Positions 11,856-52,814 of a stretch of 64,000 nt of DNA are shown here, piece by piece. The translations under genes and the position numbers were made by a program. The notes under the pieces are model-generated. The model saw nothing but the letters and a program-made list of their open reading frames with translations, was not told where the DNA came from and searched no databases. The stretch is from contig JAPLVZ010000011.1 of the NCBI GenBank assembly GCA_026396805.1, positions 54,135 to 118,134 of the forward strand, read 5' to 3'. The DNA comes from Candidatus Falkowbacteria bacterium. GTDB lineage: Bacteria; Patescibacteriota; Patescibacteriia; Patescibacteriales; UBA12465. Each line of letters starts with the position of its first letter. Position 1 is the first letter of the stretch.

Positions 11856-12292
11856 GTTATTAGAGCAGCCGTAAGCCGGATTCTGTTCTAGCGATCATTT
11901 ATCTAGGCGCGCCATTGCTGGCGAGCTCGAGCGAGCTACTTACCTTAACTCGTTCCGCCATCCGCCAACCGGCGGAGGCGGACGAGTTAGTTTGCTCTTG
12001 CTTCTGATAGGGTTTACCACGGCATCTCCGTCACTGGAGGCCGAAGCCGGTAGCCCCGAAGGGCATCCAGCCACTTTTCACCTTTGATTCTGTCAAAAAT
12101 TCCAGAATTAGTATTGTCTCTGTGGCACTTTCCCTAATCCATTTAGTCTTAAAACGAGACTAGCCCGTAAATTAAGAAAAATAGACCGGTGGGCGTTACC
12201 CACTATCATATTTGCTTATAAATAAACAAATTACGAAGTCCGGACTTTCCTCTCTATTAAAAATAGAGCAATCGCCCGCTTACTCTAATAAC
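11856..12292 (-). ncRNA. rnpB: RNase P RNA, bacterial type A
   Basis: Minus-strand read contains GAGGAAAGTCCGGACTTCG, GTGGGTAACGCCCAC, AGGGAAAGTGCCACAGAGA, GCCGTGGTAAACCC..AAGCAAGAGCAAA and CCTAGATAAATGATCGCTAGAACAGAATCCGGCTTACGG. P1 pairs GTTATTAGAG with CTCTAATAAC. Confidence 0.9.
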
Positions 12293-41156: not shown

Positions 41157-41184
41157 TTGACATAACCGGAGTATTTGCTAGAAT
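41157..41184 (+). promoter_or_regulatory. promoter TTGACA-16-TAGAAT upstream of the GIY-YIG/tRNA-Asn unit
   Basis: TTGACA 41157-41162, TAGAAT 41179-41184. Confidence 0.55.
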
Positions 41185-41249
41185 ATAAACATAAAATGTT
41201 TTTAAAGCATTTTTGTTTTTTGAAGGGAGCGCGGAAGCGTTTCCTAAAC

Positions 41250-41297
41250 AATTTAATATTCCCGGGTAGCGCTCCGCCAGCTGGCGGAGGTAGCGCA
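41250..41297 (+). repeat. upstream partial copy of tRNA-Asn 5' flank + acceptor/D-arm, interrupted by an 18-nt perfect palindrome
   Basis: AATTTAATA-TTCCCGGGTAGCGC-[CTCCGCCAGCTGGCGGAG]-GTAGCGCA. It matches 41537-41573, where the bracketed part is AGCG. Confidence 0.85.
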
Positions 41298-41302
41298 TTT
41301 AT

Positions 41303-41569
41303 ATGTATTATGTCTATGCTCTATACAACGAGCGCAATAATAAAATATATATAGGTCAAACCTGTGATTTAGAAAAGAGGCTGATTTTACATAATAGTAA
41401 AATTATAAAGAAATCATACACCTTTCGATTTAATGGTTCTTGGGATATAGTTTATAAAGAAGAGGTTAAAGATAGAACGTCCGCCTTAACTAGAGAAAAA
41501 CAATTAAAAAGTTATCAAGGCAGAATATTTATTAAAAATTTAATACATTCCCGGGTAGCGCAGCGGTAG
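41303..41569 (+). CDS. GIY-YIG nuclease family protein (stand-alone URI domain)
   Basis: 88 aa. YYVYALYNERNNKIYIGQTCDLEKRLILHN..REKQLK. The last 7 codons and the TAG stop lie inside the tRNA-Asn gene (41549-41569). Confidence 0.8.
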   Translation: MYYVYALYNERNNKIYIGQTCDLEKRLILHNSKIIKKSYTFRFNGSWDIVYKEEVKDRTSALTREKQLKSYQGRIFIKNLIHSRVAQR

Positions 41570-41860
41570 CGCAGTTGGCTGTGAACACATTAGTTCTAAA
41601 CGCAGCTTCCTCAAGTAATTGAGGTCGAATAACGAGGTGAATTGCTGGAAGTCTAAATCCGTGAGGATAAGATAATCAGCAGCCAAGCCCTGATTTTCAG
41701 GGAAGGTTCAGAGACTATCCCGTAAGGGAGTACTTCTCTAATTCTTAGAGCAGGAAGCGCCTCGCATCCATTTCAATGGATGATGATATAGTCCACCCCA
41801 CTTGGAAACTAGTGGATAAGTGTAACCAATTGGTCGTCGGTTCGAATCCGACCCCGGGAG
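41549..41860 (+). tRNA. tRNA-Asn(GUU) interrupted by a group I intron (exons 41549-41582 and 41823-41860)
   Basis: - Acceptor TCCCGGG/CCCGGGA, discriminator G.
- D arm GCGC-AGCGGTA-GCGC.
- Anticodon stem GTTGG/CCAAT; spliced loop CTGT|TAA.
- T arm GTCGG-TTCGAAT-CCGAC.
- CCA not encoded. Confidence 0.8.
41583..41822 (+). ncRNA. group I intron (240 nt, ORF-less) in the anticodon loop
   Basis: - Conserved core: GCAGCCAAGCCC (41679-41690), GTTCAGAGACTA (41706-41717), GATATAGTCC (41785-41794).
- IGS GCAGCT (41602-41607) pairs with exon GGCTGT, giving U.G at the splice site.
- The intron ends in G.
- GTAA-tetraloop hairpins are present. Confidence 0.85.
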
Positions 41861-42086
41861 CAAGCATAAAATAGGCTAATATTAGCCTATTTTTTGTTAT
41901 AAAAAAGTAAAATATACTGTCTAAAATATCAAAGTGTGACGTTATTGTGACATAAAATAGATATTTTTTAAGTGAATAAAAATATCTGTTAAATGAGTCA
42001 GGCGGGCTCTCTTGACAAAAAAGAATGCATATTGTATTATTTTTTGATAGTTAAAATCATATTGTTGAACCTTAAAAATATAGAAA

Positions 42087-50972: not shown

Positions 50973-52814
50973 TTATGAAGCGGTTATTTTTCTTAATTCA
51001 TCCATCAAGACGTTGAGCCGCTCGTTGTCGCCGGCAGATTCGGCGGCGGCGATTTCGCGCTGGAGACTATGCACTTGCCGCTGACGGCTATATTTCTTAA
51101 GTTCAACGATGATATTAATTATTTCGGCTTTAACAGACTCGACGCCATAATCATAAAAATCTTTTTCTCCCAGCAGCACGAGTTTATCCAAAGTTTTTTC
51201 CGAACCGCCTCCGTCTTCAGTCAAATAGGCGCGAAAACTTTCATAATTCAAAGAGGCAGATTTATTATAATAGATAATTAAATCTCTGTAAAACTTAGCC
51301 AAAGCTTCGTTGTTTAAGATATCAGGGTCAAGATTGTCGACACTATAGGAAATAAACTCCGGAAATTTAATAAGTAAGGACATTAAAAGCTCGACCAATT
51401 TATCATCGCGACTCATCTCGGGCGCCAAGAACTCTTTTTTAGCCTCATTTTTGTCAGGCTTGGTGTTTCTGACGCCTCCGGCTTTTAAGACGCCGTGTTT
51501 TGATTGCCACTTCACAAATTCTTCGCGGGTATCAGTCTCGGAAAACCCGAGCTCCTCGCTTATTTTTTTCAGCCAATGCCCCTGTTCCATCTTACTGACA
51601 ACCAAATCTATCATCGCGAACATTTTTAAACTCACCGCGCGCTTATTGTCGAGGATGTTTAAATCCAGGCCGGCGCTCACTTTCTCAAAATAATATTCCA
51701 GCATCGGCTTAGCGCTCGCGACCGCAGTTTTGAATTCTTCGGGATTATTTTTCAAACATTCATCGGGGTCCTTACCCGAACTTAAAACGATTATTTTCAG
51801 ATTCATTTCTTGAGCCAACGCTTCCTTGATTCCCCGGTCGGCGGCCATTTGACCGGCGGCATCCATATCAAAGAGCAAAGCGACATTAGGCGTAAATCTT
51901 TTTATTAAAGCGACCTGCTCGGATGTTAAGGCGGTTCCCGACGACGCGACTACGTTCTTAAAGCCGTGATTATGGCAAGAAATGGCGTCCATTTGGCCCT
52001 CCACGACGATTGCCAGATCATCAGCCCTAATCGCGCTCTTGGCCTTATTTAGGGCAAATAAAACCCGGCTTTTATCATAAACCTTGGTCTGCGGGCTATT
52101 GATATACTTCCCCATTTTTTCGGTCTTTTCTTTATTCGGGTTAACTCGAGCCGTGAAAGCGATTAAGTTATCATTGACGTCAAAAATCGGAAACATTATC
52201 CGATCGCGAAAACGGTCGTAATAGCCGCTCCGCCGTCCGGCGGACGCCGCCACCGGCTCTTTCTTGATAGTCAGGCCGGCCAAAAATATTTCTTCATCCG
52301 TATATTTTTTCCCGGTTAAAGGTCGAGCTTTTAAGAAATCATATAAGCCGCTCCAGGAATCAAGACTATAGCCCAGATGCCAATCGGAAATATTTTCGTC
52401 GCTTAAACCGCGCTTCAATAAGTATTCGCGCGCGACCAGACCGGTCGGCGTCGTCAAAATATGAGCATAATATTTTCCGGCTAATTCCAAAATATCTAAG
52501 ATCCGGTTGCGCTCGGAATAGTCCTGCTGATTTTCATATTGCAAAATCACGCCGGCTTTCGGAGCGAGTAAACGCAGAGTTTCCATGAATCCCAGTCCTT
52601 CCTTTTCCATAATGAAAGAGAAAACGTCGCCGCCGCGGCCGCAGCCGAAGCAATGCCAAATCTGTTTTTCCGGAGAAATGACAAAAGACGGGGACTTCTC
52701 GTTATGAAACGGACAGAGCGCTTGAAAATTAGCGCCGACCGTCTTAACGGTAATATATTCCCTGATGACCTCCACGATATCCAGTTTTGATTTTATTTCT
52801 TCCGCCTGGTTCAT
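50973..52814 (-). CDS. dnaG: DNA primase DnaG
   Basis: 613 aa. Zinc ribbon [34 protein letters not shown] and TOPRIM VVEGQMD. Confidence 0.93.

Follow-up and report, generated by a model that had tools for sequence, protein, structure and literature searches.

We analysed a stretch of 64,000 nucleotides from Candidatus Falkowbacteria bacterium (assembly GCA_026396805.1, contig JAPLVZ010000011.1, positions 54,135-118,134, forward strand), hereafter termed the window, in which a small open reading frame (ORF) for a GIY-YIG nuclease runs into the 5′-end of a tRNA-Asn gene and is preceded by a second, palindrome-containing copy of the tRNA 5′ region. All coordinates given below are positions within this window. 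The ORF (41303-41569, plus strand) encodes 88 amino acids matching the Pfam family PF01541 (E=1.1e-15), and it is the only GIY-YIG ORF in the window. Its 3′-end lies inside the tRNA gene, as six codons (S R V A Q R) and the stop codon TAG (41567-41569) are read from tRNA positions 1-21. The functional tRNA-Asn(GUU), read from the sequence, consists of exon 1 (tRNA positions 1-35; 41549-41582, plus strand), a group I intron of 240 nucleotides in the anticodon loop that contains no ORF (41583-41822, plus strand; Rfam RF00028, 86.2 bits), and exon 2 (positions 36-73; 41823-41860, plus strand). The 3′ strand of the acceptor stem, CCCGGGA, pairs with TCCCGGG, the CCA end is not encoded, and an intrinsic terminator follows at 41868-41893 (plus strand). 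Because of the intron, ARAGORN misses this tRNA; in the intron-less orthologue at locus L007 the program calls tRNA-Asn GTT.

The upstream copy of the tRNA 5′ region consists of two blocks. Block A, TCCCGGGTAGCGC (41260-41272, plus strand), comprises tRNA-Asn positions 1-13 and equals 41549-41561, while block B, GGTAGCGCA (41289-41297, plus strand), comprises positions 18-26 and matches 41565-41573. Between these two parts of the displaced (psi) copy stands the 16-nucleotide palindrome TCCGCCAGCTGGCGGA (41273-41288), here termed HP1, in place of the D-loop AGC. With the flanking C and G, HP1 forms a perfect palindrome of 18 nucleotides, CTCCGCCAGCTGGCGGAG (41272-41289), for which no match with three or fewer mismatches was obtained in 100 dinucleotide shuffles of the window. 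The predicted energy of the corresponding RNA hairpin is -19.1 kcal/mol. The similarity between the two copies extends beyond the tRNA itself, as AATTTAATA is found at 41250-41258 and again at 41537-41545, where it is followed by CAT before the functional tRNA; likewise, the ORF codons K-N-L-I (41534-41545) resemble the native leader of the tRNA gene. These results agree with the initial annotation, which had placed the duplicated tRNA 5′ region at 41250-41297 and 41537-41573 and a perfect 18-nucleotide palindrome in the upstream D-loop. Its description of an 88-aa GIY-YIG ORF with a TAG inside the tRNA also stands, except that six rather than seven codons are derived from the tRNA.

The displaced copy is preceded by the native tRNA-Asn promoter (41157-41184, plus strand), which comprises TTGACA, a spacer of 16 nucleotides and TGcTAGAAT, corresponding to 11 of 12 matches plus the TG extension in a promoter scan. 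This promoter aligns with the promoters of the uninterrupted tRNA-Asn loci L147, L180, L149, L178 and others. It is followed by the native leader of about 75 nucleotides (41185-41259, plus strand), in which an AT-rich hairpin and its T-run come first, followed by a GC hairpin and lastly by ACAATTTAATAT. To judge from this layout, the intact tRNA is co-transcribed behind the ORF. The leader is kept in many loci (besides the window in L147, L149, L163, L178, L180, L186, L245, L246, L258 and others), and the T-run after its AT-rich hairpin (CATAAAATGTTTTTAAAGCATTTTTGTTTTTTG) resembles an attenuator or a terminator located 5′ of a tRNA.

For a comparison with uninterrupted alleles, metagenome contigs were scanned with the 5′ 43-mer of the window's tRNA-Asn in its intron-less form, which yielded 120 loci. 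A locus was scored as empty when no GIY-YIG ORF was present within 700 nucleotides upstream; 8 of the 120 loci were too short to be scored, leaving 112 informative ones. Although all of them carry the identical 43-mer, 97 of the 112 are empty and only 15 contain a GIY-YIG ORF; the cassette is hence patchy among lineages of identical tRNA-Asn sequence. Relative to the uninterrupted alleles, the insert in the window comprises 289 bp (41273-41561) and lies between tRNA-Asn positions 13 and 14. It starts with HP1 as its left edge and finishes, at its right end, with a new copy of tRNA positions 1-13 (41549-41561). In 13 empty loci, the sequence aligns base for base with window positions 41157-41259, covering the promoter and being collinear with the leader, whose 3′-end reads ACAATTTAATA, and continues straight into the upstream copy, so that block A sits at the tRNA start of the empty alleles. 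Since the alignment of the promoter and leader of the empty alleles runs into the upstream copy, the displaced copy corresponds to the native tRNA start. The upstream copy is thus the old 5′ part of the gene, which has stayed at the native promoter and is disabled by HP1, and the new 5′ part is the downstream one. Moreover, a GreA gene (49-58% identity) is located directly upstream of tRNA-Asn without a cassette in 8 empty loci, which indicates that GreA-tRNA-Asn is the ancestral order in this clade. Among the 80 genome loci described below, L007 alone shares this synteny. Taken together, the 97 empty loci and the collinear flanks support the proposal, already made in the initial annotation, of a selfish nuclease cassette that restores the 5′-end of the tRNA, and the suggested comparison of orthologous loci indeed revealed presence and absence of the insert.

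We next consider the protein. The Pfam GIY-YIG profile covers residues 1-70 with 58.1 bits (cut-off 22.6). Across 30 aligned homologues there is no exception at Y5, Y16, G18, R26 or E65, and at least 90% have H30; in other words, the catalytic GIY..YIG..R..E residues, whose lack had been named as grounds for doubting the cassette, are kept. Counted from the alignment, Y5, Y16, G18, R26 and H30 correspond to residues 6, 17, 19, 27 and 31 of I-TevI. The I-TevI-type profile TIGR01453, in contrast, stays below its cut-off (24.3 bits versus 56) and covers residues 4-37 only, and searches of NCBIfam and of the PDB sequences gave just weak similarity to the N-terminus of I-TevI. The AlphaFold2 model is confident (predicted local distance difference test score 92) and contains a single domain. 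The top Foldseek matches (probability 0.98-1.00) were 1zg2 (UPF0213) and the Slx1 structures 6seh, 7cq3 and 4xm5, then 7wme and 1ywl; the best fold matches are thus UPF0213 (1zg2, 1ywl), the Slx1 nuclease domain and At-HIGLE, whereas I-TevI ranks lower (0.63-0.75). A C-terminal RING/zinc domain is not present in this single-domain protein of 88 aa, and there is no DNA-binding domain, for which 81-88 aa leave no room. Because of the fold ranking and the lack of a DNA-binding domain, the modelled protein appears to be a minimal SLX1/UPF0213-like nuclease, closer to structure-specific nucleases than to homing enzymes that read a sequence. It has the same minimal beta-beta-alpha-beta-alpha core and the same catalytic residues as the SLX1/UPF0213 proteins (BH0048, EF2693, YhbQ-like). 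The substrates of SLX1, branched and stem-loop DNA, are cut according to their structure; the enzyme contains a RING/zinc domain and requires SLX4. We know of no description of an SLX1 or UPF0213 protein in the context of a tRNA and a palindrome.

A scan of one genome per species returned at least 498 relatives, and the following statistics for the family of the window (type 1) refer to the best 80 of these. The 80 loci belong to Microgenomates, Parcubacteria, Saccharibacteria and WWE3; the homologous ORFs encode 81-88 aa, all organism-named records are from groups of the Candidate Phyla Radiation (CPR; Patescibacteria), and NCBI names the proteins merely 'GIY-YIG nuclease family protein'. All 80 ORFs adjoin or overlap a tRNA gene, namely tRNA-Asn in 78 cases, tRNA-His in one (L055) and tRNA-Thr in one (L074). 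Because the arrangement recurs in 80 of 80 related loci, the duplication is not a product of chance. The C-termini of the homologues (IPR*, IPL*, IPG*, SPVAQW*, SRVAQR*) are translated tRNA 5′-ends, and over-extended type-1 gene calls start with FPGSAPPAGGGSA or SPIALRQLAEAERQ, i.e., with the translated displaced copy and HP1. In 75 of the 80 loci, the palindrome itself precedes the start codon by 29-60 nucleotides. Four further loci contain either a compensated variant, CCGGC...GCCGG (L031, L043, L069), or a nested variant (L071), and L080 is the only one of the 80 without HP1 or a variant upstream. When 77 type-1 loci were scored, HP1 was exact in 55, and near variants were present in the rest.

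The two tRNA copies at a given locus resemble each other more than they resemble the tRNAs of other loci. In 54 of 74 loci, the stretch ahead of the ORF contains an exact match to the first 13 nucleotides of the own tRNA, and across 32 distinct 13-mers the displaced copy differs on average by 0.64 mismatches from its own tRNA versus 3.04 from those of other loci. These numbers show concerted evolution of the two copies. The sequences on either side of HP1 in the cassettes at tRNA-His and tRNA-Thr come from the tRNA gene at that site. Because these flanks match the new tRNA, the duplication was made from the target and not carried along from tRNA-Asn. For the same reason we discarded the idea that the element carries its own Asn-derived tRNA piece, as the cassettes at His, Thr and also at the Arg and Leu genes described below copy the local tRNA. 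Plain strand-annealing repair from a donor cassette was likewise rejected, since the chimeric tRNAs it predicts were not seen. The least eroded displaced segments reach the 3′ side of the anticodon loop, approximately position 37 (L043, L044, L057).

Several loci show stages other than the complete cassette. At some, the displaced copy has decayed while the ORF is retained. Conversely, units of a displaced copy and a tRNA without ORF, located about 70-120 nucleotides 5′ of tRNA-Asn, are present in L160, with the type-2 palindrome HP2 introduced below, and in L215, with other hairpins; both are probably decayed cassettes. In addition, L073 and L262 contain tandem arrays, approximately ten loci have a second displaced copy between ORF and tRNA, and the displaced copy of L061 carries the acceptor sequence of another lineage. 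The identity of the nucleases correlates hardly at all with that of the tRNAs (Spearman 0.09), the tRNA being a weak marker of host relatedness; L007 and L072, for instance, have identical tRNAs and nucleases that are just 58% identical. Such remnants, arrays and signs of exchange would fit the cycle of invasion, decay and loss of homing endonuclease genes. A comparison of synonymous and non-synonymous changes with a 99%-identical relative comprised 5 differences only.

The tRNA gene in the window carries a second inserted element, the group I intron, and the initial annotation had offered as an alternative that this intron has the GIY-YIG protein as its homing enzyme, acting in trans. In favour of such a role, both elements reside in one tRNA gene, and HP1 lies 22 nucleotides upstream of the intron insertion site, a spacing similar to the cleavage distance of I-TevI. 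However, about 66 of the 80 cassettes flank intron-less tRNA-Asn genes, among them L007; the nucleases of L007 and L230 share 99% identity with that of the window, and neither locus has an intron; cassettes are also found at tRNAs without introns altogether. Furthermore, the intron is polymorphic where the cassette is constant: short-read contigs of the same species break at GGCTGT|, some of them continue into the intron, and one is intron-less. Finally, the intron of L060 (2812-3186) contains its own ORF of 124 aa with an HNH-type CxxC...HH...CxxCH pattern. Since most cassettes flank intron-less tRNAs, the intron is polymorphic and the L060 intron has its own HNH ORF, a role of the nuclease as the homing enzyme of the intron is not supported, and we consider it exceedingly improbable. 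The intron is a separate, independent element, as had been anticipated by the notion of two independent selfish elements in one tRNA. At least six of the 78 Asn genes contain a group I intron; the intron of L084 may be expanded too. The same-species contigs with intron polymorphism are L001-L006 and L142-L144.

The 15 filled loci of the empty-site survey revealed that the position next to tRNA-Asn is occupied by more than one clade of nucleases. Only L165, L183, L195 and L230 are of type 1, and all four contain HP1. Seven filled loci contain a type-2 nuclease, which is 37% identical to type 1. In the type-2 displaced copy, tRNA positions 1-9 are followed by the palindrome CCTGCCTGCCGGCAGGCAGG (HP2) and then by positions 10 onward. 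Types 3 and 4 show other palindromes at other positions, although in small numbers. The relatives of type 2 include Bacteroidota proteins, and the identical HP2 is present in the displaced 5′ copy of tRNA-Arg(CCT) at the loci of the Olivibacter protein P0179 and in a metagenome-assembled genome of Bacteroidia; at these tRNA-Arg(CCT) loci the stop codon of the ORF lies 1-3 nucleotides ahead of the intact tRNA. The same HP2 design, with a displaced copy reaching to the anticodon loop, is found at tRNA-Leu(GAG) on an unassigned metagenome contig (L273), and nine over-extended type-2 gene calls read a tRNA-like peptide followed by HP2. Type-2 loci contain HP2 and no HP1, type-1 loci show the reverse, and HP2 is not present in the window. 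Thus, across phyla and tRNAs, each nuclease clade has its own palindrome. Three simple readings of the palindrome did not hold: a fixed operator or -35 element, as the distance to the ATG is too variable; a sequestered ribosome-binding site, given a spacing of 12-28 nucleotides; and P-type nucleotides from the repair of broken ends, as the element is not palindromic with respect to its flanks.

The pairing of hairpin and nuclease also bears on the idea of an RNA-guided nuclease. According to this idea, the displaced copy, once transcribed, would guide the nuclease to uninterrupted alleles, the hairpin serving as a handle bound by the protein and 13 nucleotides plus about 10-20 nucleotides of tRNA-matching flanks as the targeting part. 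The flanks of the hairpin do match the resident tRNA, and the hairpin sequence co-varies with the nuclease clade, as it does in guide-RNA systems. However, flanks and tRNA are of the same sense, and the resident functional gene is itself a match, which would result in self-targeting; the protein is a bare catalytic domain of 81 aa; and in some loci the displaced copy decays while the ORF stays. To our knowledge, a GIY-YIG ribonucleoprotein is without precedent, and we regard RNA guidance as very unlikely.

HP1 is not confined to the cassettes. In the window, the RNase P RNA gene (11856-12288) contains a hairpin (AACUCG...CGAGUU) that carries at its tip a nested double HP1 (UCCGCC-UCCGCC-GGU-UGGCGGA-UGGCGGA; 11954-11982, minus strand). 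The nested element folds with an energy of -38 kcal/mol (z = -5) and explains part of the insertions in the Rfam alignment of RNase P RNA. The nested form also occurs in the displaced copies of L014, L039 and L079, and a triple one in L067. A further HP1 copy, TCCGCCAACTGGCGGA (24642-24657), with a centre variant that is present in 7 cassettes, lies in an unannotated intergenic region of 506 nucleotides (24275-24780) between two minus-strand genes. Rfam gave no match for this region, which may represent a long 5′ untranslated region or an undescribed RNA. Moreover, an HP1-like palindrome, TCCGCCGTCCGGCGGA (52229-52244), is located in frame within dnaG (50973-52814, minus strand), where it encodes ..AASAGRRSG.. 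just ahead of a conserved motif; it is possibly a tolerated in-frame insertion, although this assignment is uncertain.

Comparable positions were observed in other genomes. The palindrome occupies the terminal loop of the tRNA-Asn intron in L063 (~2838) and L066 (~1147), and lies in structured regions of L076 (~2006; a T-loop-like motif) and L021 (~2885). In L071 (~2851) it replaces the T-loop GTT of a displaced tRNA-Asn 3′ half downstream of the intact gene. An exact HP1 in L062 (~1063) resides inside an apparent coding sequence, where it would read IRQLAD. Outside cassettes, six exact copies were counted in about 390 kb of type-1 genomes versus none in 662 kb of empty-site genomes (binomial estimate, p ~0.003). 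In the sampled sequence, palindromes at hairpin tips elsewhere were found only in genomes with the cognate nuclease.

The pairing of nuclease clade and palindrome, together with the occurrence of the palindrome elsewhere, is the behaviour expected of a REP/RAYT-like system, on small numbers for types 3 and 4. In the REP/RAYT systems, a single-copy gene for a REP-associated tyrosine transposase (RAYT) is flanked by its cognate GC-rich repetitive extragenic palindrome (REP), which is also scattered in the genome, and each clade has its own class of palindrome. Transferred to the cassette, the nuclease would copy the palindrome to hairpin tips and would not target tRNAs at all; the tRNA gene would be a safe, well-transcribed niche, occupied after a palindrome insertion had been rescued by partial duplication. 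The association of clades with particular palindromes across phyla, the dispersed and nested palindromes at hairpin tips, their absence from 662 kb of nuclease-less genomes, the ORF-less units of displaced copy, palindrome and tRNA (L160, L215 and the 3′ copy in L071) and the fold of a structure-specific nuclease all speak for such a palindrome-mobilising system. Against it, the copy number is low (about one per 30-60 kb), the insertions elsewhere (RNase P RNA, introns) lack a duplication, and neither the precise abutment of the ORF on tRNA +1 at five tRNAs nor the end of the duplication at the anticodon loop is accounted for. We also know of no mechanism by which a hydrolytic GIY-YIG nuclease inserts DNA. 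The proposal overlaps with the one that we favour, and taken by itself it appears rather doubtful to us.

Alternatively, the protein could be a host-serving nuclease of the SLX1/UPF0213 kind that acts in repair or resolves DNA structures and is co-transcribed with tRNA-Asn, with the tRNA-like leader and the hairpin acting as a cis-regulatory RNA or operator, e.g., for autorepression or for a coupling to RNase P. This would be in line with the strong sequence conservation and the intact catalytic residues, and with the fact that the displaced copy and the palindrome are transcribed from the tRNA promoter just 5′ of the start codon. I-TevI offers a parallel, as it represses its own promoter via an operator that resembles its homing site. 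A further point in favour is a perfect TATAAT 6-7 nucleotides before the ATG, right after the displaced copy, in 15 of the 80 cassettes. However, the gene is missing from 87% of the loci that have this tRNA, the site hosts nuclease clades and palindromes of several unrelated kinds, and the distance from palindrome to ATG ranges from 5 to about 50 nucleotides, which leaves no fixed operator geometry. The palindrome is also found in RNase P RNA and introns, and ORF-less remnants and tandem arrays exist. In view of these points, a host-serving gene seems unlikely. As for the TATAAT motif itself, it occurs at 0.3% of random positions and is not found in the window; in this subset, it suggests leaderless transcription of the nuclease gene.

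Taken together, the comparisons of sequences and alleles lead us to think that the region is probably a mobile tRNA cassette, similar to homing endonuclease genes and equipped with a cognate palindrome. As to how such a cassette might cut, choose its target and duplicate it, we infer the following course. The nuclease would be specific for structure rather than sequence, and would break either the DNA of the tRNA gene or its own palindrome extruded as a hairpin or cruciform. Recombinational repair would then copy the cassette into empty tRNA-Asn alleles by homing, and gene conversion would keep both tRNA copies identical. Occasional new insertions would be accompanied by de novo duplication of the tRNA 5′ half, from about +1 to the anticodon loop (37/38), as from staggered breaks. 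The palindrome would be the cognate element of the nuclease; by splitting the direct repeat, it could make it harder to delete the ORF or to cut the displaced copy again, and it might itself be copied to other hairpin tips. In addition, processing by RNase P would remove the stop codon of the ORF, so that expression would be tied to the unprocessed precursor and kept low.

A number of observations weigh against this proposal. The highly conserved nuclease, with a mean identity of 59% across phyla and intact in all 80 best-match loci, would also fit a gene that benefits the host. All 19 contigs of the window species with an identical GreA also carry the cassette; polymorphism between filled and empty alleles was thus not seen within one species in these 19 contigs and was found between lineages only. 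A target lying wholly inside the tRNA would be restored by the regenerated gene, which raises the problem of self-cutting. The position of the palindrome in the displaced copy varies, which a simple scar of the insertion site does not account for, and the similarity between the native leader and the 3′-end of the ORF likewise falls outside the explanation. The census of palindromes is based on small numbers and different clades. Lastly, a protein of 81-88 aa without a DNA-binding domain does not account for the preference of type 1 for tRNA-Asn; this specificity may reflect descent and homologous recombination rather than targeting.

A bolder version of the mobile cassette would place it in a new class of bacterial mobile elements that require neither transposase nor integrase nor reverse transcriptase. 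Here, a structure-specific mini GIY-YIG nuclease would cut the extruded tRNA cloverleaf at +1 and at 37/38, which would give a duplication of about 37 bp around its own gene, and would spread its palindrome to hairpin tips including that of RNase P RNA. Nuclease and palindrome would together make up a selfish system of two components, present in CPR bacteria, in Bacteroidota and probably beyond. We put this version forward tentatively, as a possibility with the odds against it.

Several known systems share parts of this design. SegB, a GIY-YIG endonuclease from the tRNA cluster of phages T4/T6, cuts within tRNA genes and gives rise to recombination-dependent tandem amplification of segB together with a tRNA (PMC2330249; PMC13096335). 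Like the cassette, it is encoded by a GIY-YIG gene adjoining tRNA genes, and it is inherited preferentially together with flanking tRNA DNA (PMC2330249; PMC13096335). Unlike the cassette, SegB is larger, phage-borne and located between complete tRNA genes, and has neither a displaced tRNA half nor a cognate palindrome. SegB also carries a C-terminal DNA-binding region. A second parallel is provided by fungal mitochondrial mobile ORFs with duplicated gene termini, found in Allomyces atp6 and in Glomus atp6/atp9/cox2/nad3 (PMC3630166). Here too, an endonuclease ORF comes with a replacement gene end, the native end is left as a pseudo-copy, and filled and empty alleles exist (PMC3630166). These mobile ORFs differ in that they reside in protein-coding genes of organelles, duplicate the 3′-end, and encode LAGLIDADG or full-size GIY-YIG enzymes, whereas the cassette is found at a bacterial tRNA gene, duplicates the 5′ half, copies the local tRNA and has a specific palindrome in the displaced copy.

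Other comparisons concern the palindrome and the insertion site. RAYTs are HUH/Y1 transposases, and REPs are extragenic, number in the hundreds, and are not known to be linked to tRNA genes or to duplicate a gene half; the protein of the cassette, in contrast, is a GIY-YIG domain and no HUH/Y1 transposase. Yeast mitochondrial GC clusters, Allomyces double-hairpin elements and Rickettsia palindromic elements are likewise GC-rich palindromes, some of them nested, that reside at tolerated sites within genes for structural RNAs or, in frame, for proteins; these are larger (about 30-150 nucleotides) and not known to be tied to an adjacent nuclease clade or to displaced tRNA halves. Integrase islands insert into tRNA genes and bring a partial tRNA copy that restores the gene; they measure kilobases, rely on a tyrosine or a serine recombinase, and it is the 3′-end that they duplicate. 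The 289-bp insert differs from them in holding a GIY-YIG ORF only, without recombinase, and in duplicating the 5′ part. It also differs from I-TevI-type intron enzymes, as the ORF is located 5′ of the tRNA and not inside the intron. Among known elements, the closest kind is hence made up of free-standing homing endonuclease cassettes with a partial duplication of the host gene, together with SegB-like tRNA-associated enzymes. The new features are the chromosomal bacterial tRNA host, the regenerated 5′ half, the lack of a DNA-binding domain and a clade-specific palindrome that is scattered in genes for structured RNAs. In full-text literature searches we did not find the arrangement, HP1 or HP2 described, and Rfam, searched with gathering and E-value thresholds, contains no family at the displaced copy and palindrome of the window or the Bacteroidota loci. 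The occurrence of the same design at tRNA genes of several bacterial phyla is apparently undescribed.

If the proposed cassette is real, thousands of small genes for a 'GIY-YIG nuclease family protein' in CPR bacteria and Bacteroidota would be tRNA-gene cassettes, and regeneration of the 5′ half would represent a new, non-lethal route for a selfish gene into an essential RNA gene. A nuclease without DNA-binding domain that is tied to a specific palindrome would suggest that the target is chosen by DNA structure, a property that would matter both to the study of SLX1-like enzymes and to the development of tools. The cassettes would also offer a source for unexplained hairpin insertions in structured RNAs of small-genome bacteria, and an explanation for assembly breaks and tRNA mis-annotation at such loci. 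With filled and empty alleles and pairs of nuclease and palindrome at hand, the hypothesis is directly testable in vitro.

Viral sequences were covered as well. When the window protein was searched against 50,697 phage records, no relative was found. Viral contigs contained 55 matches to HP1, mostly chance occurrences in high-GC coding DNA; in about 15 low-GC contigs classed as viral, HP1 caps a longer hairpin, and the retrieved flanks contain no GIY-YIG gene. The low-GC IMG/VR contigs with HP1 are L089, L093, L096, L098-L100, L102, L104, L106, L114, L115, L118, L133, L134, L140 and L141.

Two minor observations concern annotation. In its intron mode, ARAGORN mislabels intron-bearing tRNA-Asn genes as Tyr, Asp or Thr. 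Furthermore, many contigs that belong to CPR/Patescibacteria by content (L007-L011, L018, L028, L029 and others) are titled 'uncultured Gammaproteobacteria', 'Bdellovibrionales' or 'Pseudomonadales' in public records.

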